Under the pieces are notes generated by a model. The model saw only the letters and a list, made by a program, of their open reading frames with translations, did not search any database and was not told the DNA's origin. The position numbers were made by a program, and so were the translations under genes. Below are positions 4,896 to 23,470 of a stretch of DNA of 30,048 nucleotides, piece by piece; the stretch's first letter is position 1, and every line of letters begins with the position of its first letter. Origin of the DNA: Patescibacteria group bacterium (lineage in GTDB: Bacteria > Patescibacteriota > Microgenomatia > UBA1406 > GWC2-37-13); assembly GCA_040881235.1 (NCBI GenBank), contig JBBEDP010000040.1, positions 1 through 30,048 on the forward strand, given 5' to 3'.

Positions 4896-6527
4896 ATGGA
4901 TGACTCTTTAAATTATACAGAACTTCGCACGCATAAAAAAAGTAAGTATTTTTACCTATTAATAGCTCTCATAATATTTCATGTAATAGCTAATATAACT
5001 TGGATTATTCTAAATAATCAACCACCAACTTGGGACGCAGGTTTACATACAGTATTGAGCTTCAAGATTTATGAGTCATTTAGTAGTCTATTTACTGTAT
5101 CTAGCTACTATCCGCCATTCGTACATGTCATTGGAAGTATATTTGTATCCATACTTGGTTACAGCTTTAAATCAGTTGAACTTACAGGGACTCTTTTTTT
5201 TGTCACGGCTTTGATTTATATATATTTATATACTAAAGAACTAATCAAAAGTCCAAAAATAGCCTTCTTTTCTGCTCTATTTTTTAGCTTATTTATTACA
5301 ATATTCGATCAATCTAGATATCATATGCTCGATATTCCATTAACGGCTATGGTAGTTGGATCGTTATATTACCTTGAAAAATCCGATAATCTTATAAAAA
5401 AAAGGCCCAGCATGTTGTTTTTTCTTTTCTTTGCTTTAGCTATTTTGACAAAATGGTATGCTGTCATATTTATTACAATTCCACTTGTTTTTAGAGCAAT
5501 TGAGCTAATTAAAAATAGAGAATATTTTAGGGTTCAAATAAAAAACATATTATTAGGACTAGTCGTGTTTTTAGTATTGGTCTTACCTTGGTATTTAATA
5601 AACCTAAATTCACTTATAAATATTGCTGCGTATACTTCAACTGCAGAACTTGCTGATCCACAAAGCCGCTTTAGCATTGAAAACATTTTATTTTATCCAA
5701 AGCTCATTATTATATTCCAAACAAGCTTTTTAGGATTTATATTTTTTATTGTTTCTTTAGTATTTTTTATTAAGAATTCAATCAATAAACAGAAACTTTT
5801 AATATTTCTTTCTATTTTATTTATATATTCGGTATTTACATTAATAGCTAATAAAAATATTAGATACTTAATTCCGATGATGCCATTTGTAGCAATAATT
5901 ATGGGTTTTGGAGCAGACTGGATACTAAAAAAGGGTAAATTTTTATCTTCATTCTTATTTTCAGCTACGATTACTTATCTAGTATTATCATATTTTATCT
6001 TGTCCTTTGGTTTTCCGATCTACCCAAATTATCAATATGCTTTTAATTTCCCAATATTAGGTTGGACAGATGTATATTACCTTAATGATCATCCTATTAA
6101 GATCATTTATGAAGATAACCAAAAATTGCCATATAGTAATCTAGTAGAAGAAATATCAAGCTTGATAGATAATGACAATGTTAGGACTTTGACACTAGTA
6201 GATACGCCTTACATTAATGATTATTTACTAAACCCGAAATTATACTTTAAAGATTCCAAAGCAGAATTTAATATTACTGAGTATTTTCCGTTAAACAAAG
6301 TTGATGATATTAATAAATTTCTCAACGATAATGTAGATGTAATTATTACGTCAAAAAACTATATAGGTCTGGAAGGTGGGATACGTGAGTACAAGAGCGT
6401 AAAAAGATTTCATGAATTTGTACTTTCCGGAAAGCTCAAAAACTTTGAGAAAGTTAAGGAATACGAACTGATAGGGGATGAATACCACCCAAACGACACT
6501 ATTATATTACTTAAGAAAGTTTTTTAA
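4896..6527 (+). CDS. ArnT/PMT-like (GT39/GT83) GT-C glycosyltransferase
   Basis: PPTWDAGLH after TM1, YYPPFVH, DIPLTAM, LTKW and KNIRYLIP motifs, many TM helices and a soluble C-terminal domain. Confidence 0.8.
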   Translation: MDDSLNYTELRTHKKSKYFYLLIALIIFHVIANITWIILNNQPPTWDAGLHTVLSFKIYESFSSLFTVSSYYPPFVHVIGSIFVSILGYSFKSVELTGTLFFVTALIYIYLYTKELIKSPKIAFFSALFFSLFITIFDQSRYHMLDIPLTAMVVGSLYYLEKSDNLIKKRPSMLFFLFFALAILTKWYAVIFITIPLVFRAIELIKNREYFRVQIKNILLGLVVFLVLVLPWYLINLNSLINIAAYTSTAELADPQSRFSIENILFYPKLIIIFQTSFLGFIFFIVSLVFFIKNSINKQKLLIFLSILFIYSVFTLIANKNIRYLIPMMPFVAIIMGFGADWILKKGKFLSSFLFSATITYLVLSYFILSFGFPIYPNYQYAFNFPILGWTDVYYLNDHPIKIIYEDNQKLPYSNLVEEISSLIDNDNVRTLTLVDTPYINDYLLNPKLYFKDSKAEFNITEYFPLNKVDDINKFLNDNVDVIITSKNYIGLEGGIREYKSVKRFHEFVLSGKLKNFEKVKEYELIGDEYHPNDTIILLKKVF

Positions 6528-7486
6528 CTGTTATTAATTGGAGTTGGAAGAAATTCTCCTGTTATCATATTTATAGCTACGTAGGCTAATTTATTAACAA
6601 CATTATCTTCTCCATATATAGGGTAGAAAGTTACTCTTGTCCATGCATTTTCATCTCCGTTTTCTATACCTTTGGCGTCTATGAAGTCAGTTGTTATAGT
6701 ATATTCGCAACCAGTAGCTCCACAGTTTGTTCCTGACATTGCCGCATAGAGCATGTCTTGAGAGAATTGTTCAAGGTTTATTATTTGACCGTTATCAGTA
6801 TTAACCTCTTCATGTCTAGTATCTGCGGCGTGGTTTTTGTATGCAAACCCTACTGCAAATTTATTAAATTTCCAGCCTTGATTTAAGTCTGCTGAAGTGC
6901 CATCATCTGCAACACCTCTGATATATGTAAGATATACGTTGTTTTCTTTCCATGGAAGTTCTATTTGGAAACCGTTTGGAGCGGTAAGAGTTCCACGTCC
7001 GTGAGAAAGATACGCATATGCACCTTCAGGTGCATTTACAATTACCGGACCTTCGTAATCTAATGGGTGACCAGTTCCTGGATCTCTTTCAATCCCAGAA
7101 TTTGTAGTACTTGCTACAAAGTTCATTACAGGTTCAATTTGAGTTACTAAACCTGCTAAGTTTTCTAATTCGCCCTTAACCTGTTCTTTGGTAAGTTCAG
7201 GATAAGCTTCTTGAAAATCCTTTGCGTAATACTCAAATCTATCTGTAGGTAAGGCTTCCGTAGTTGTAGTTGTTTCTGGAATTGTCGTTGCCTCTGGCAA
7301 AGTGGATGATGTAGTTGTAGGAAGTACTTCAGTTGTTGATGTCGAACTTATTGTACTTGTTGACGCTTCTATTGCTCCATTATCATTGCCACAAGCAGCA
7401 AGAAGGGCTGGAGAAGCTAATGCTCCTACCATGGCGAAAATTGCGCTTTTTGGTAAATGTGATTGTGGATTTTCTGAGTGGTTCAT
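6524..7486 (-). CDS. Putative lipoprotein with Ser/Thr-rich linker, unknown function
   Basis: Hydrophobic signal ending in lipobox LLAAC (Cys32, codon 7391-7393), then STSTISSTSTTEVLPTTTSSTLPEATTIPETTTTTEALPT and a globular domain with NCGATGC. A strong promoter lies upstream. Confidence 0.75.
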   Translation of the reverse strand: MNHSENPQSHLPKSAIFAMVGALASPALLAACGNDNGAIEASTSTISSTSTTEVLPTTTSSTLPEATTIPETTTTTEALPTDRFEYYAKDFQEAYPELTKEQVKGELENLAGLVTQIEPVMNFVASTTNSGIERDPGTGHPLDYEGPVIVNAPEGAYAYLSHGRGTLTAPNGFQIELPWKENNVYLTYIRGVADDGTSADLNQGWKFNKFAVGFAYKNHAADTRHEEVNTDNGQIINLEQFSQDMLYAAMSGTNCGATGCEYTITTDFIDAKGIENGDENAWTRVTFYPIYGEDNVVNKLAYVAINMITGEFLPTPINNS

Positions 7487-17484: not shown

Positions 17485-18975
17485 TCAAAGCTGATAAATT
17501 ATGGCAATTAGACGACTATCATCGTAAACAAAATATTCTTTGCCTTTTGGAGAAAGGTATTTTATCTGTGTAATATAGGGAATGTAGTCGCCCATAAGAA
17601 CATAAATATTTTTATCGGAGGAATCTCTTAAATTAAAATTACCGAATTCTATAGATCTATCTACACAGTTTAAATTAGGCAATAAAAATTGAATTGTTTC
17701 ATAATTACAACTCCATCTATCGGAAAAAAATAAGACTTGACTTTGTGAAACATAAACGCTTTTTAATTTTATAATTGTTTCTTTTAAATCATATGCATAA
17801 ACCCATTTTATTAATGGGGAATGAGGAAATTTAAAAAAATAGGTTTGAAAATTAATAAAAGAACTAATAATTACAACTAGAGATATAAGTATTGGGAATA
17901 ACTTATTTTGTTTTATTAGAAAAGAAATAGCATTCCCAGCAAAAAAATAGAGATAGGGCATGATTAAAATAATTCTTCTATAAGTACCGCCGAATGTTAA
18001 AAAAGAGCTTAAAAGAAATATAATTAAGGAAAACAAAAGAAAAGCTTTGCTTAAATTTAGGTTTTTAAATAATAAAATGCTTCCTAGTCCAAATAAGATA
18101 AGATCAACTAAGTGGAAGCTATAAAAATCTCCAAATCCATCGGCATAGTCAAAAACATCTCCTTTAAAAAAAGAGTTGATTTTATTAAAACCATTTTGAA
18201 TTATCAAATATGCTTTTTGATTAAACGAATTTATGTCTTTAATTTCAGCTTTGTTCAAAATAGAAATAGTTTTATGATGGGAAAAATAGAAATCTGGTTG
18301 TGTTATAACTATTTTCAGTAGTGGTAGACTAATAATTATGAATGTAAATACAAAAAGTATTAATCTCTTAATTTCTATATGGTGAAATTTATTAGATAGT
18401 ACATCAAAAACCAAAAGTAAGATTATGGTCATAGGAAAGAGAATAAATGCGTTATATGTATACATACCTAAACCAGCAAAAACCGCAGCAATAAAAATTA
18501 AATAATGCTTTTTTGTATTTCGCCCTATTAAAATAAATACTAGAGTAGCAATTTGAAAAAATAAAGCTGTTGTTAACATAAAACCTGTTCTTGAATAGTG
18601 CAAGTAAATGAGAGAAAAGCTAAACGCAAATGCTGTTAAAAATGAAGGAAGTTTGGTAAAAAAAAGTCTTAAAAAAATATAAAAAAATGAAACAGTACCT
18701 ATAGAAAAAATACTCACTGTTAGTCTTATTGAAGAAACTGATTCACCAAAAAGTTTAAAAAAAATTGGTGTTATATATGCGAGGCCAATAGGGTTGCCAA
18801 GCGCATCTCCTGAAAAAACTCCAATGTATCCATTTTGAATAATTTCTCTGGCCCAAAGACCAAGCCACGCCTCGTCTCCGTGAAGCCCAGTGGGAATCTT
18901 TTCTAAAAAAATAAATCGTGTAATTGCGGTTAAAGTAATTAGTAAAAGAATAATTAGAAAGTCTTTTTTTATCAT
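17485..18975 (-). CDS. ArnT/PMT-like GT-C glycosyltransferase
   Basis: PTGLHGDEAW after TM1, SIRLTVSIFS, HYSRTG, AGLGMYTY and multiple TM helices. Confidence 0.82.
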   Translation of the reverse strand: MIKKDFLIILLLITLTAITRFIFLEKIPTGLHGDEAWLGLWAREIIQNGYIGVFSGDALGNPIGLAYITPIFFKLFGESVSSIRLTVSIFSIGTVSFFYIFLRLFFTKLPSFLTAFAFSFSLIYLHYSRTGFMLTTALFFQIATLVFILIGRNTKKHYLIFIAAVFAGLGMYTYNAFILFPMTIILLLVFDVLSNKFHHIEIKRLILFVFTFIIISLPLLKIVITQPDFYFSHHKTISILNKAEIKDINSFNQKAYLIIQNGFNKINSFFKGDVFDYADGFGDFYSFHLVDLILFGLGSILLFKNLNLSKAFLLFSLIIFLLSSFLTFGGTYRRIILIMPYLYFFAGNAISFLIKQNKLFPILISLVVIISSFINFQTYFFKFPHSPLIKWVYAYDLKETIIKLKSVYVSQSQVLFFSDRWSCNYETIQFLLPNLNCVDRSIEFGNFNLRDSSDKNIYVLMGDYIPYITQIKYLSPKGKEYFVYDDSRLIAIIYQL

Positions 18976-20561
18976 AACTCTTTTTCAAAAATTATTATTT
19001 TGGGGTGGTCGTAGACAGTAAAGGATTCATCGGCAATGTCATCGTTTATTTCGAAATTAAAATTTCCTATTCGAAAACCCGGATAGGATGTGAATTCAGC
19101 GACTTTTTTAAACCCTAATTCTTCAGAAAATAATCTTTTGTAGTACGATGAACTAATCGGAAAACATATTTTATACATAGAACATGAAGCAAGTTTCTGT
19201 ATAGGGTTATAGAGTCTATTAGAAGCTATAATAATATAATCTGAACGTTCTAATTTGTTTCTAATACTAAACCACTTTTCTTCATTATCAGGCTGGTCAT
19301 AAAGTGTTAATTCTTCATATGTGTAATTTTCTCCATCAAAAATAGGAAGTCGATCATCCCAGTGTTCAACAGCCAAAGTTGAACCTTTTGGAACATTGTT
19401 AATTATCCAGTTTGACGCAGATATCCGCGTGTGTTCTTTTGTATAAATACTTAAAAACAAAAAAGTCCAGATTACAGCCAGGCCAGCCATAATAATTACA
19501 CCTCGCAGGTGTAATTTTTTGGCTTTTAAACTGGTGTAACCAGCTAGAATTACTAAAAATGGGTAGACGGGAAGTATGTAGCGCATAAACTTGACAGCTG
19601 AGTTACCGATAATTAAAAAGTACCAAATATAAAAAACCAAAAATAATAAAATAAACTTATTCTTACCAGAAAATATACGCTGTAAATGTAATGCTTTTGA
19701 TTTGAATAAAAACCATAAGCCTAAAATAGATAAAATACTAATTACTGGGCCAAGTCCCCATAAAAATATATTTTTTAAGTAATGCCAATAGGGGATGGTT
19801 CCTACATATTGTAGAGTATATGGAAAAACATAAGGGTTGCTGTTTAGTTCTAATTGAAGTTTAATATCAACAATAAATTTTGAGTAATTTATATATGCAA
19901 AAGGCATAAAGGTAAAGGTAAAAAGAAATAAGTAAAAAGTAAAAAGAAATAAGTCAGTAAGCCTTTTTTTGCTTTTATAAAAAACAATGATTAATATCAA
20001 GGGAATATAGATTATTGCTGTAAATTTGGACGTTATTGCAGCGGCAAGTGCAATTGAAATGAAGAGAAGTCTTTTTCTACTTGACTTATGTAGATATAAA
20101 AGGGAAGCGTAAAATAAAAGAGTTATAAAAAAATTTAAAAAAGTATCAACAATAAAAAAATGGGAGTTTTGTATCGGAAAGAATGCTACTGTATACAAAA
20201 ATGCTGAAAATAAGGCCACTTCTTCCTTTTTAAAAATAATAATTGCAATCTTGTAAATAAGAAAGATAACTCCAACATCTGCTAAAACAGACAAAAATCT
20301 TCCAAGGTACAGCATTTCCCCATAAAAAGAGTAACTTGTAGAAAAAACAGAGTCTAGAATTTGTCCGGTTCCCTTTAATAAGTAGATTGGAAGAGATCCG
20401 TAGTTAAAAAATTCCGGATTTAAATTTTCAAAAAAATGAATCTTATCAGCAACCATCATTAGCATTCGTTCATCTGGATGCAGATGAGAACCTTGGTCCC
20501 AATTAATTCCTAGAATTCGTAGTAAAAATCCTAAAATAATAATGATTGAGATTTTCCACAT
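18972..20561 (-). CDS. ArnT/PMT-like GT-C glycosyltransferase (LHPDER subfamily)
   Basis: WDQGSHLHPDER, FNYGSLP, IQNSHFFIVD, AAAITSKF, KFMRYILP, EHWDDRLP and ESFTVYDHP; 4-bp overlap with the next gene. Confidence 0.85.
   Translation of the reverse strand: MWKISIIIILGFLLRILGINWDQGSHLHPDERMLMMVADKIHFFENLNPEFFNYGSLPIYLLKGTGQILDSVFSTSYSFYGEMLYLGRFLSVLADVGVIFLIYKIAIIIFKKEEVALFSAFLYTVAFFPIQNSHFFIVDTFLNFFITLLFYASLLYLHKSSRKRLLFISIALAAAITSKFTAIIYIPLILIIVFYKSKKRLTDLFLFTFYLFLFTFTFMPFAYINYSKFIVDIKLQLELNSNPYVFPYTLQYVGTIPYWHYLKNIFLWGLGPVISILSILGLWFLFKSKALHLQRIFSGKNKFILLFLVFYIWYFLIIGNSAVKFMRYILPVYPFLVILAGYTSLKAKKLHLRGVIIMAGLAVIWTFLFLSIYTKEHTRISASNWIINNVPKGSTLAVEHWDDRLPIFDGENYTYEELTLYDQPDNEEKWFSIRNKLERSDYIIIASNRLYNPIQKLASCSMYKICFPISSSYYKRLFSEELGFKKVAEFTSYPGFRIGNFNFEINDDIADESFTVYDHPKIIIFEKEL
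19494..19516. repeat. Perfect 10-3-10 palindrome inside a CDS
   Basis: AATTACACCT-CGC-AGGTGTAATT, encoding KLHLRGVI on the minus strand. Confidence 0.8.
19915..19956. repeat. Six-unit period-7 array inside a CDS
   Basis: aaggtaa aaagaaa taagtaa aaagtaa aaagaaa taagtca; G recurs every 7 bp from 19918 to 19953; encodes DLFLFTFYLFLFTF. Confidence 0.75.
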
Positions 20562-20579
20562 TTTATCTATAATGATAAC

Positions 20580-21422
20580 ATGCTTCCTATATTATTGGAT
20601 TTGCCAGTTATAAAAATCTATACAAATGGCGTTTTTTTGGTCTTGGCGTTTTTTTGGGGTTCGTTTCTTTTGTGGAAAAATTTTCTTTTAACATCTCGAA
20701 AAGAGGAAGAAATATTTGACGGCTTATTTATATCAATATCAGGGGGATTATTGTTGGGCAGAGTGTTTCATGTAGCTTTAAACTTTGAAGATTTTGGGTT
20801 CAGTATTTTTAAATTTATTCTAATAAATGGTTACCCCGGTATTTCAATTTACGGATTTTTAATCGGTGCATTCGTCTCTATGTGGCTTTATTTCAATATG
20901 AGGAACATTGATATAAGGGAAACGTTTGACTATGTTATTCCTGCTGCTTTTTTAGCTTTAGGACTTGGAAAATTAGGCTCATTTTTATCTGGAAGTGAGA
21001 TAGGCGGTAGAACAAACTTTGTATTATCCTTAGAATACCCTGGACTTGAAGGGTCAAGACATTTGACCTCATTATACGAAGGAATAATATTTTTAATAGC
21101 ATGTTTTTTATCTTATAAGTTACTTTTTGCAGTAAGACGAGATAAGTTTCTAAAAGGTTCAAACTTTTTCTTTTTTTGGTGGTTTTTCTCTTTAATTTTT
21201 CTAATTATAGATCCATTAAAAACAGATAAAACAATATTATTTGGCTTTGGTTTTAACTTCCTTTTATCTGCAGTTCTACTATTGACATTTACTTTGATAT
21301 TCATATATCATTTCAGAAGCTTTATATTTGAGCGGCTTAAATTATTAAAATTTAAACAACTAAAAAATGGCAAAAAAGTTTTCAAAAACATTCATAAAAA
21401 AGAAAAAAGAAAGTCTTCTTAA
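20580..21422 (+). CDS. lgt: Prolipoprotein diacylglyceryl transferase family protein, highly divergent
   Basis: Lgt layout recognisable (LGRVFHV, GISIYG, FDYVIP, LGKLGSFLSG, RHLTSLYEG), but several catalytic residues are substituted. TATAAT(20568-20573) lies 6 nt before the ATG. Confidence 0.8.
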   Translation: MLPILLDLPVIKIYTNGVFLVLAFFWGSFLLWKNFLLTSRKEEEIFDGLFISISGGLLLGRVFHVALNFEDFGFSIFKFILINGYPGISIYGFLIGAFVSMWLYFNMRNIDIRETFDYVIPAAFLALGLGKLGSFLSGSEIGGRTNFVLSLEYPGLEGSRHLTSLYEGIIFLIACFLSYKLLFAVRRDKFLKGSNFFFFWWFFSLIFLIIDPLKTDKTILFGFGFNFLLSAVLLLTFTLIFIYHFRSFIFERLKLLKFKQLKNGKKVFKNIHKKEKRKSS

Positions 21423-21732
21423 AGACAGAGAAGAAACCCTTCGACAAATAGAAGAACTAAAAAAAGATGATCCATTTGCAGATCCTGACCACGCTTCTGA
21501 TAATGCTGCAATTGATACTGATGTGAGAGAGCAAGTAGGCCACGATACAATACAGGCGCAAATAAAATCTCTAAATCGGAAAATAGAATTTATTGAAAGA
21601 GCATTTGAAAAAATTGCAAAAAATAAGTATGGAGTTTGTGAGAGATGTGAAAATCAAATCCCTTCAAAAAGATTAGATCTTATTCCAGAGGCTAAATACT
21701 GTATCAACTGCGAGCAAGAACTCATACAGTAA
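21367..21732 (+). CDS. DksA/TraR family C4 zinc-finger protein
   Basis: Coiled coil followed by YGVCERCENQIPSKRLDLIPEAKYCINC. Confidence 0.92.
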   Translation: MAKKFSKTFIKKKKESLLKDREETLRQIEELKKDDPFADPDHASDNAAIDTDVREQVGHDTIQAQIKSLNRKIEFIERAFEKIAKNKYGVCERCENQIPSKRLDLIPEAKYCINCEQELIQ

Positions 21733-21745
21733 TATATAATTTTTT

Positions 21746-23470
21746 ATGGGGCAGATACCATTTGAGACTTTTATAAGCTTTTTTATATTCCTTTTTGTAC
21801 CATTCATATTCGGATTTTTAGCAAAAAAAATAAATATCTCGCCCTTGGTTGGCTATATAATTGGTGGAGTTATACTCGGGAATTTTTTTCAAGGCATTAT
21901 ATCTTCAGATATAATTAACGGCTTTGCCTATATTGGGATTGCTTTACTACTTTTTACAGTTGGCATAAATATAAATTTACAAAAAGTTTTTGTATTGAAG
22001 AGATTTATACTTTTGGGAGGGCTTCTTCAACTCCTTTTAACCACTTTTTTTGTAGCAATTGTCAGTAGTTTTTTCGGGTTTACCCCTTTACAGTCTTTTC
22101 TAATTGCCATTGCTTTTGTATCATCGTCAACAGCTATTGTTTCTAAAATAATACAAGATAGGGGAGAAGAGGATTCTTTTTTAGGAGAAGTGACTGTTGG
22201 AATTTTAATGTTCCAGGATTTAGCTTTTATTCCACTTATACTCATATTTACTCTTTTTAACAGTCAAAATGTATCATTTCTGGAGCTTACAAAGAACGTT
22301 TTCATATCTCTTGCTATAGCTGCTTTAATTCTATACTTAACGTTTTTTATTGGAAAAAGAGTCATACCAATACTTTTTGATATAGTTGCAAAAGTTTCAA
22401 GAGAACTTCTAAATTTACTTGTTTTTATTTTTATGTTTTTTATTGTGGGCGTATTTTCACTATTAAATCTTCACATATTTGTTGGGGCATTTATTGCAGG
22501 AGTATTAATTGCACAGAGCCTTGAGCACTTTCATATTTTTTCTCAGATAAGGCCATTACGAGACATCACGGCAATAGTTTTCCTTGTTTTTATTGGAACG
22601 AATATACAGGTTAGTGAAATTATTTCTATAATACCGCAAGTACTATTTTTTACCTTACTGATTATTACAGCAAAAGTAATAATATTTTTGAGCTTGTTTT
22701 TATATTTTAAATTTTCTTCAAGAATGGCCTTTACTATCGCTATTTTCTTATTTCAGATAAGTGAAAATGCATTTATTTTAATTTTGTTAGCTTACTTTAA
22801 TGGTGTATTTTCATCACAACAATTTACTTTTTTAATAACAGCTGTAATATTGAGCCTCTTAATTACTCCATGGATTATAAATAATAAATACAATATATAT
22901 TATTTCATACGTTTATTTTTCAAGAAATATATACCTGCTATTGAAGTATTTATTAAACATAAGTTAGATTTTGATAAATCTCCATTAGAAGAGTTTGCTA
23001 TTGCTGATCATGTTGTGATATGCGGATATGGACGCATCGGTTCTACTGTAGGAAGATCCTTGAACTTAGCCAATATACCTTTTATAGGCATAGACTACAA
23101 TATAAATACTGTTGAAAAGGCAAAAAAAGAGGGAGTTAATGTAGTCTATGGGGATCCAACAGACATGGATACTTTAAAATTTGTAAAGACAGGAAAAGCC
23201 CTCGCAGTGGTTGTATCTGTTCCTGGAAAAACAAATCAGGAAGCTGTTATATTGAATTCAAAAAAACTCAGTCCTAGCATATATATAATTAGTAGGGTAC
23301 ATAACTCAACAGACCAGGAAAGAGCCCTTGATTTAGGTGCAAAATATGTAGTTAGATCGGAAATTGAAGCGTCTTTATCGATTGTCAAAAAACTTTTTCT
23401 ACTTAAAAAAATGCCTAAAGATGAAGTAGTGAAGAGGCTTAGAAATATTAGGTTAATGAAAAATCCTTAG
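21746..23470 (+). CDS. CPA2 cation:proton antiporter with C-terminal TrkA-N/RCK domain (KefB/KefC-like)
   Basis: LLLFTVG, SSTAIVSKI, ILMFQDL, GAFIAG and FQISENAF; C-terminal VVICGYGRIG...YGDPTD. Confidence 0.92.
   Translation: MGQIPFETFISFFIFLFVPFIFGFLAKKINISPLVGYIIGGVILGNFFQGIISSDIINGFAYIGIALLLFTVGININLQKVFVLKRFILLGGLLQLLLTTFFVAIVSSFFGFTPLQSFLIAIAFVSSSTAIVSKIIQDRGEEDSFLGEVTVGILMFQDLAFIPLILIFTLFNSQNVSFLELTKNVFISLAIAALILYLTFFIGKRVIPILFDIVAKVSRELLNLLVFIFMFFIVGVFSLLNLHIFVGAFIAGVLIAQSLEHFHIFSQIRPLRDITAIVFLVFIGTNIQVSEIISIIPQVLFFTLLIITAKVIIFLSLFLYFKFSSRMAFTIAIFLFQISENAFILILLAYFNGVFSSQQFTFLITAVILSLLITPWIINNKYNIYYFIRLFFKKYIPAIEVFIKHKLDFDKSPLEEFAIADHVVICGYGRIGSTVGRSLNLANIPFIGIDYNINTVEKAKKEGVNVVYGDPTDMDTLKFVKTGKALAVVVSVPGKTNQEAVILNSKKLSPSIYIISRVHNSTDQERALDLGAKYVVRSEIEASLSIVKKLFLLKKMPKDEVVKRLRNIRLMKNP

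Follow-up and report, generated by a model that had tools for sequence, protein, structure and literature searches.

An Lgt-fold membrane protein encoded beside a DksA-type factor in an order of Patescibacteria in which no LspA was found

The window analyzed here, by which we mean the whole stretch of 30,048 nucleotides (nt) from a Patescibacteria group bacterium (assembly GCA_040881235.1, contig JBBEDP010000040.1, positions 1-30,048, forward strand), contains at 20580-21422 an open reading frame (ORF) for a homolog of the prolipoprotein diacylglyceryl transferase Lgt. We see about an even chance that this protein is an Lgt derivative partnered with a DksA-type factor, perhaps still able to bind lipid, and that it is no longer a general lipoprotein enzyme. 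This reading is preferred because position 239 of the active site is unconstrained in the order, neither LspA nor a canonical Lgt was found there, candidate substrates are few, copies of the gene that reside in a conserved cluster have decayed repeatedly, Lgt-like domains occur fused to DksA, and one family of the order keeps a dead copy. Membership in the Lgt family is already known, as is the existence of Lgts without R143 and R239 in other phyla (2026, PMC13251419); new here are an entire order in which the searches recovered no Lgt homolog besides the divergent protein and no LspA, the origin of the gene from the cluster, and its tie to DksA.

The window's own genome (G000, 77.6% complete) was compared with a sample of its order comprising 41 genomes (Roizmanbacteria and kin, Microgenomates), 36 of which are at least 90% complete; with G006, a near-complete relative in the order (1203 ORFs); and with a phylum sample of 301 Patescibacteria genomes, whose tallies include one unpublished genome, G194, on which no specific claim depends. 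Residues are numbered as in E. coli Lgt unless window numbers are given, and their equivalences rest on sequence alignments, not on a residue-level structural superposition. E. coli Lgt (PDB 5azb) was aligned with HMMER, and sets of 29 and of 52 relatives were aligned with MAFFT.

Family, fold and active site of the Lgt-like protein

20580..21422, forward strand: Lgt-like seven-transmembrane (7-TM) membrane protein of 280 amino acids (aa), described by PF01790, an AlphaFold2 model and residue alignments

The product of the ORF at 20580-21422 is a true member of the Lgt family and has its fold. It matches the Pfam LGT model over the full length (PF01790, 84.2 bits against a cut-off of 24.9; residues 3-243 on profile positions 1-240), it misses the cut-off of every NCBIfam Lgt equivalog (TIGR00544, 30.2 versus 118.9; NF000778, 55.5 versus 334), and its ortholog in the same genus is named 'prolipoprotein diacylglyceryl transferase family protein' by NCBI. 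The AlphaFold2 model, built with 24 relatives in the alignment, has seven long helices (predicted local distance difference test score 74.6, predicted template modeling [TM] score 0.72). Of the solved structures, only that of E. coli Lgt, 5azb, resembles it strongly (Foldseek E value 3e-7, TM score 0.62), and a VIA-align comparison of the two gave Z 18.2 with a root mean square deviation of 4.0 over 239 residues, the next best structure reaching Z 7.2. The full-length Pfam family and the 7-TM fold are thus shared with E. coli Lgt (PDB 5AZB/5AZC; PF01790; TIGR00544). The protein closes with a Lys-rich tail that is predicted to be cytoplasmic.

The active site is another matter. HMMER paired the HWYG, SFHGG and GRLGNF segments of E. 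coli Lgt with YTNG, SIYGF and GKLGSF of the window protein, the MAFFT columns were identical, and both MAFFT alignments paired FRIIVEFFR with IFLIIDPLK. The resulting changes from E. coli to the window are Y26 to N16, H103 to Y91, R143 to K131 and N146 to S134, followed in the C-terminal half by Y235 to F203, R239 to F207, E243 to D211 and R246 to K214; the alignments further give N149S and Y30L, and the periplasmic head has about 22 residues fewer than in E. coli Lgt. Kept are R73 (window R61), D129 (D117), G154 (G142), R195-H196 (R160-H161) and Y201-E202 (Y166-E167), along with G27, G99, G104, G142 and G145 in E. coli numbers. The column of E151 holds S139; E151 is probably kept as the invariant glutamate E140, since the loop is shorter by one residue and E140 is the very next position. 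In window numbers, the modified pocket therefore comprises K131, S134, E140, G142, R160-H161, Y166-E167, F207, D211 and K214, and in place of the signature motif G142-R-L-G-N-F-x-N-G-E-x-x-G154 the window reads GKLGSFLSGSEIG.

HMMER alone aligns the C-terminal half to E. coli Lgt weakly (domain score 1.9 bits, with the register off by one), so the R239, E243 and R246 columns rest on the multiple alignment. There, the canonical Lgts of Patescibacteria show R239 in 23 of 23 sequences and R246 in 22 of 23, which fixes the register. A preliminary description of this DNA, based on manual alignment, had proposed Y26N, H103Y, R143K, N146S, R239F and E243D along with retention of R73, G154 and the RH..LYE segment; all of these assignments were upheld by the HMMER and MAFFT alignments. 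The comparison with relatives that it called for showed that the substitutions hold across the lineage, and its remark that the His-to-Tyr change alone occurs in other Lgt clades agrees with the literature discussed next.

Several of these residues have been studied in E. coli, where R143K, Y26F, H103Y, Y235F and R246K do not complement and neither does any of the R239 and E243 substitutions tried (Mao et al. 2016, PMC4728403); R239 was called the most conserved Lgt residue (PMC4728403). H103Y is nonetheless no evidence of inactivity, because natural Lgts carry Y, W or F at this position (PMC13251419), and Y91 of the window is a natural variant. Natural R246K proteins exist as well, and a subgroup of Lgts in other phyla lacks both R143 and R239, for which another acyl substrate or another mechanism was suggested (2026, PMC13251419). 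The window protein resembles these divergent Lgts in departing naturally from the invariant motif. Several of the taxa concerned are reported to carry more than one lgt, Deinococcus up to four (PMC13251419), whereas no Lgt homolog other than the divergent protein was found in the present order, which also lacks LspA. The same paper mentions neither the candidate phyla radiation (CPR)/Patescibacteria nor a link to DksA.

A different departure from the signature was seen in five other Patescibacteria Lgts (L061, L062, L069, L073 and L074, from G091, G101, G048, G058 and G060, respectively), which have W26, C146, D151 and D243. They keep R143 and R239, and also R246 except for a W in G060, and all five genomes encode LspA. 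This set of residues looks like a natural variant of the signature that is probably functional.

Within the order, 40 of the 41 genomes have one Lgt-family match each, without internal stops, and 46 columns are invariant across 24 members that are about 50% identical. Among the 15 aligned members of families f1 and f2 (the window included), K143, D243 and K246 are each present in 13. Position 146 is S or A in the order; position 26 is N in the window and its genus and F, L, Q, I, M or A in the other members of the order. Position 239 is unconstrained, with Y, N, Q, E, F, T or M in the 15 aligned members. A third family, f3 (seven genomes), has a copy of only 225-273 aa that lacks K143, D129 and the head domain, with the order of Lgt-like, DksA-like and antiporter genes intact.

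In a maximum-likelihood tree the order forms a clade with 100/100 support on a long stem (1.28 changes per site) and with short branches inside, which fits a shift followed by purifying selection. Looking further out, only 23 of the 127 nearest representatives at 50% identity have the R143/R239/R246 triad, and R73, D129, G154 and H196 are almost invariant among the 127; the Lgt scaffold is far better conserved than the catalytic site. Members of the class that lack LspA show intermediate states, an example being G300, whose Lgt has K143 and S146 but H103, R239, E243 and R246.

Pathway partners, lipid supply and candidate substrates

No second Lgt was found in the window's genome by the Pfam profile or by a broad Lgt hidden Markov model (HMM) run over six frames; only the window copy was recovered. 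Nor did the LspA profile PF01252 find a match in this genome or in any of the 41 genomes of the order (0/41), and the same search found LspA in 188 of the 301 genomes of the phylum sample. A divergent LspA missed by Pfam was sought with an HMM built from 25 Patescibacteria LspA sequences, which found nothing in G000 or in 1.2 Mb of G006 and detected its control at 4.8e-42. The preliminary description had proposed searches for a second lgt and for lspA, and it mentioned the idea that the lineage does not make its own phospholipids. For phosphatidylglycerol, this idea is borne out: CdsA passes its cut-off in only 1 of the 41 genomes of the order, so phosphatidylglycerol cannot be made in these cells, and a CDP-alcohol phosphatidyltransferase was found in 14 of the 41. 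The window's genome has a weak CDP-alcohol phosphatidyltransferase match (G000:C104:9523-9960, 33.8 bits), and no CdsA was found in it. Unlike E. coli Lgt, then, the window protein has no LspA partner that could be found, almost no substrate and no endogenous phosphatidylglycerol synthesis.

6524..7486, reverse strand: the sole convincing lipobox protein of the assembly and a candidate Lgt substrate (two lipobox patterns, 479 ORFs)

The window does encode a lipobox protein, as had been noted at the outset. Its signal peptide ends in LAAC, followed by GNDNG; the protein matches no Pfam domain, and its gene sits in DNA of slightly raised GC content (0.35 versus about 0.30). With the same two patterns, textbook lipobox proteins numbered 1 among 479 ORFs in G000, 2 among 1203 in G006 and 0 among 408 in G300; the LspA-positive controls G285 and G091 gave 4 among 416 and 2 among 376, respectively. 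Judged by the chance frequency of Cys after such signal-like N termini, about one match would be expected in G000 and G006 together versus the three seen, and the gap to the controls is small. Orthologs of the 6524-7486 protein occur only in its own genus, plus one metagenome protein (60-66% identity), and in its distant homologs a transmembrane anchor or a collagen-like N terminus (PF01391) replaces the lipobox signal. For the two G006 lipobox proteins, a search of other order members for orthologs gave only low-complexity matches. Each lipobox protein is genus-specific; the Lgt-like gene, by contrast, occurs in 40 of the 41 genomes. Judging from these patterns, lipoproteins of the lineage would be rare and sporadic, but real ones may exist.

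The lgt, dksA-like, lspA cluster and fusions with DksA

A three-gene cluster of lgt, a dksA/traR-like gene and lspA is widespread across Patescibacteria. This order was seen at L053-L057, L043, L045-L047 and L072; in the Saccharibacteria-like loci L059 and L060 a homolog of the exchanger adjoins the dksA-like gene and lspA, and lgt lies about 3 kb away. Because it shares this gene order, the window's Lgt-like gene is the positional orthologue of the cluster lgt, and lspA has been lost from the site. In the order, the DksA-like gene lies directly 3' of the Lgt-like gene in 27 of 29 loci, and it does so in 10 of 10 further loci; the exchanger follows in 23 of the 29. We found no paper that links DksA with lspA and lgt or describes this cluster, and none on Lgt biology in CPR bacteria or naming ylyA together with lspA.

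Five LspA-positive genomes of the same class have two Lgts each, a degenerate one in the cluster and a canonical one elsewhere in the genome, the latter with R143, N146, R239, E243 and R246. In the trees, the canonical copies located elsewhere form a separate clade (100/96), and the window's order joins the cluster copies with Shimodaira-Hasegawa-like approximate likelihood ratio supports of 95 and 98 in quick trees but only 68/80 in a careful one. Synteny is firmer evidence than the tree for descent from the cluster lgt. The decay of cluster copies is repeated and independent.

The connection with DksA goes beyond adjacency. P0167, a representative match to the window protein (E value 3e-17), combines in one chain of 386 aa a PF01790 domain (111.5 bits) and a full-length DksA at residues 267-385. 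With the window's DksA-like protein as the query, matches were obtained in 134 of the 301 phylum genomes, many of them in open frames of 325-411 aa. At least 17 of 20 such loci that were fetched (range L220-L238) are single ORFs with an Lgt-like N-terminal domain and a DksA C-terminal domain, and they belong to several families. Eleven of the fused loci lie directly 5' of lspA and three lie near an exchanger. Their Lgt domains mostly lack R143, N146, the head domain and R239; the exception is f60, whose fused domain is nearly canonical, with R239, E243 and R246 kept and with M143 and S146. Among homologs of 491-2000 aa none was found, a length range that is uninformative for fusions. The C terminus of Lgt is cytoplasmic, and a DksA domain fused to it would therefore sit where RNA polymerase is.

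The fused or adjacent dead Lgt proteins with DksA (P0167, L220-L238) belong to the same gene lineage as the window protein by synteny, with moderate support from the tree, and catalytic residues have been lost in them too. Unlike the fusions, the window has separate ORFs that overlap by 56 nt, and its protein has kept the head domain and a conserved polar pocket; unlike the fusion loci, it has no lspA downstream, and no canonical second Lgt was found. A possible parallel is ylyA of B. subtilis, which encodes a DksA-like RNA polymerase-binding protein and lies next to lspA; this neighborhood suggests an old association of DksA-like factors with the lipoprotein pathway. No Lgt-like partner or fusion of ylyA is known.

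The genes and sites around the Lgt-like gene are as follows.

21367..21732, forward strand: DksA/TraR-type protein of 121 aa with a coiled coil and a C4 zinc finger (PF01258, 37.7 bits)
21746..23470, forward strand: Na+/H+ exchanger with a TrkA_N domain, Kef-type (PF00999, 146.6 bits; PF02254, 83.7 bits)
20546..20573, forward strand: promoter-like site, TTGAGA, 16-nt spacer, TATAAT (11/12 consensus), within the 5' end of the divergent GT-C gene
21282..21311, forward strand: sigma-70-like site, TTGACA, 18-nt spacer, TATCAT (11/12), 56 nt upstream of the DksA-like start
17485-18975 and 18972-20561, reverse strand: tandem C-type glycosyltransferase (GT-C; PMT_2) genes, divergent from the Lgt-like gene

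The first 56 nt of the DksA-like gene overlap the end of the Lgt-like gene in the +1 frame, and the DksA-like product also matches the full-length DksA models NF033459 and TIGR02420, below their cut-offs. The exchanger gene begins 13 nt 3' of it, at the site that lspA occupies in other Patescibacteria. Because only 18 nt separate the start codons at 20561 (GT-C) and 20580 (Lgt-like), both promoters must lie within coding sequence. The site at 21282-21311 falls near the 3' end of the Lgt-like coding sequence and may act as an internal promoter; promoter-like sites in the window are no commoner than in shuffled sequence. No terminator-like site was found between 20300 and 23700, which is consistent with co-transcription and is no proof of it. 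The GT-C neighbor was set aside as a functional partner, being kept in only 8 of 29 related loci.

Competing explanations and their implications

In the scenario that we favor, the ancestor of the Lgt-like gene would be the lgt of an ancient Patescibacteria cluster of lgt, dksA-like and lspA, often near a Kef-type antiporter, and it would have been selectively maintained. In the order, lspA is gone from the cluster, no canonical Lgt was found, and the cluster copy has replaced or lost the catalytic Arg143/Asn146/Arg239 network, keeping the 7-TM fold and a polar pocket (Lys143, Asp243, Lys246, Glu202, His196 and Arg195). The protein would then no longer act as a general prolipoprotein diacylglyceryl transferase; it could instead be the membrane-bound partner of the RNA polymerase-binding, DksA-type factor encoded beside it, which it would tether or regulate at the membrane, and the pocket may still bind scavenged phospholipid as a signal. 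The loss of bulk Lgt activity, the partnership with DksA in the unfused case and the lipid-sensing role are all predictions from sequence comparison, and the natural fusions point by analogy to a physical or regulatory interaction between the Lgt-like and DksA-like proteins. A wider idea, which we put forward only tentatively, is that the Lgt fold now senses membrane lipids or the envelope and thereby holds or controls a DksA-type, RNA polymerase-binding factor; such a module, signaling from the membrane to RNA polymerase, would be common among CPR bacteria, its genes being separate, overlapping or fused, and would have been kept for its own sake in this order after the lipoprotein pathway (canonical Lgt, LspA and most substrates) was discarded.

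Several observations weigh against the partner reading. The pocket of f1 and f2 (K143, D243, K246, E202, H196, R195, G142, G145, G154 and E140) is near-invariant and undecayed, and three of its changes preserve charge, a pattern that would be expected of a still-active enzyme. The only Lgt of G053, encoded beside a dksA-like gene and lspA, carries K143, so R143K may be tolerated in the phylum, and R246K and H103Y are among the natural variants mentioned above (PMC13251419). A few textbook lipobox proteins do exist in the lineage, and in orthologs of the 6524-7486 protein the lipobox Cys is kept (LSAGC in G001, LSAC in P0272) in signal peptides that have otherwise diverged. As for descent, the branch that unites the window's clade with the degenerate cluster copies received only 68/80 in a careful search, and long branches are involved. 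Canonical Lgts also adjoin dksA-like genes, and the adjacency may simply be inherited gene order. Finally, dksA-like genes are present in families f4 and f7 of the class without a detectable Lgt: G043, G072, G099 and G168 are complete genomes in which no Lgt or LspA was detected, with DksA-like homologs at E values of 1e-18 to 1e-21. The notion that the DksA-like gene occurs solely with an Lgt-like gene was rejected on these grounds, and DksA therefore has no strict need of an Lgt-like partner.

The most direct alternative is a working prolipoprotein S-lipid transferase with a remodeled site (Lys143, Asp243 and Lys246 replacing Arg143, Arg239, Glu243 and Arg246) and possibly a host-derived donor, acting on the one to three lipobox proteins of each genome. 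We regard it as possible, if rather unlikely, and no less doubtful is its corollary that, LspA being absent, the substrates retain the signal peptide or are cleaved by a different protease. On the one hand, the searches of the genome recovered no Lgt homolog but this one, which has the full-length Lgt fold; its intramembrane polar residues are strongly conserved in f1 and f2 with three charge-preserving replacements, and the sole Lgt of G053, which is linked to lspA, has K143 as well. Textbook lipoboxes were seen in G000, G001 and G006, and three orthologs share the Cys. A change of donor would be plausible in cells without phosphatidylglycerol of their own (given the CdsA and CDP-alcohol phosphatidyltransferase counts), and another substrate or mechanism has been proposed for Lgts without R143 and R239 (PMC13251419). 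On the other hand, position 239 is unconstrained although R239 is said to be the most conserved residue of the family, and R143K, R246K, Y26F and Y235F each inactivate E. coli Lgt (PMC4728403). The lipobox counts are not above chance (about one expected and three seen in G000 and G006), these proteins are genus-specific while the gene is core, f3 retains the gene without a trace of the catalytic site, and no LspA was found in 41 genomes.

A conserved pocket in cells where substrates and LspA are missing would also suit an Lgt-fold enzyme with a non-protein acceptor, which might act on the head groups of phospholipids scavenged from the host, cleaving or remodeling them (phosphatidylglycerol would yield diacylglycerol), or might pass lipid on to a glycan that the neighboring GT-C enzymes make. 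Phosphatidylglycerol bound in E. coli Lgt crystals is in fact slowly broken down to diacylglycerol (PMC4728403), the organism, in which no CdsA was found, needs lipid uptake, and a GT-C glycosyltransferase gene lies divergently upstream. This neighbor is, however, kept in just 8 of 29 loci, no other lipid-metabolism gene is linked, and, to judge from its degenerate and fused relatives, this gene lineage can do without catalysis; we consider such an enzyme improbable. That the gene is a decaying, functionless relic of lgt, left after the lipoprotein pathway was abandoned, would surprise us greatly. Many essential residues have changed, LspA is missing and more degenerate versions occur in f3 and in sister classes, but the frame is intact in 40 of 41 genomes, 46 columns remain invariant in 24 members at about 50% identity, branches within the clade are short after the long stem, and gene order and the overlap with the dksA-like gene are conserved; moreover, genomes this small seldom keep dead genes across a whole order.

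The preliminary description had offered two options, a pseudoenzyme and an enzyme that takes its lipid from another donor. Both ideas stay live, and it is the simple change of donor that has lost ground to a role linked to DksA, because of the descent from the cluster, the degenerate and fused sister copies and the dead copy in f3.

Lgt and LspA are regarded as a universal, coupled bacterial pathway; both are treated as antibiotic targets, and the catalytic residues R143 and R239 as invariant. The order described here keeps an Lgt-fold protein under selection without LspA, without a canonical Lgt and without synthesis of the usual donor, and it has almost no substrates. If the protein still lipidates, it would define how far the Lgt active site can change and would show that a lipoprotein pathway can operate in the absence of LspA. 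Otherwise, it would be a clear case of the reuse of an essential enzyme fold, and the recurrent fusion with DksA would point to a connection of membrane and RNA polymerase, not described so far, in bacteria reliant on lipids of their hosts.

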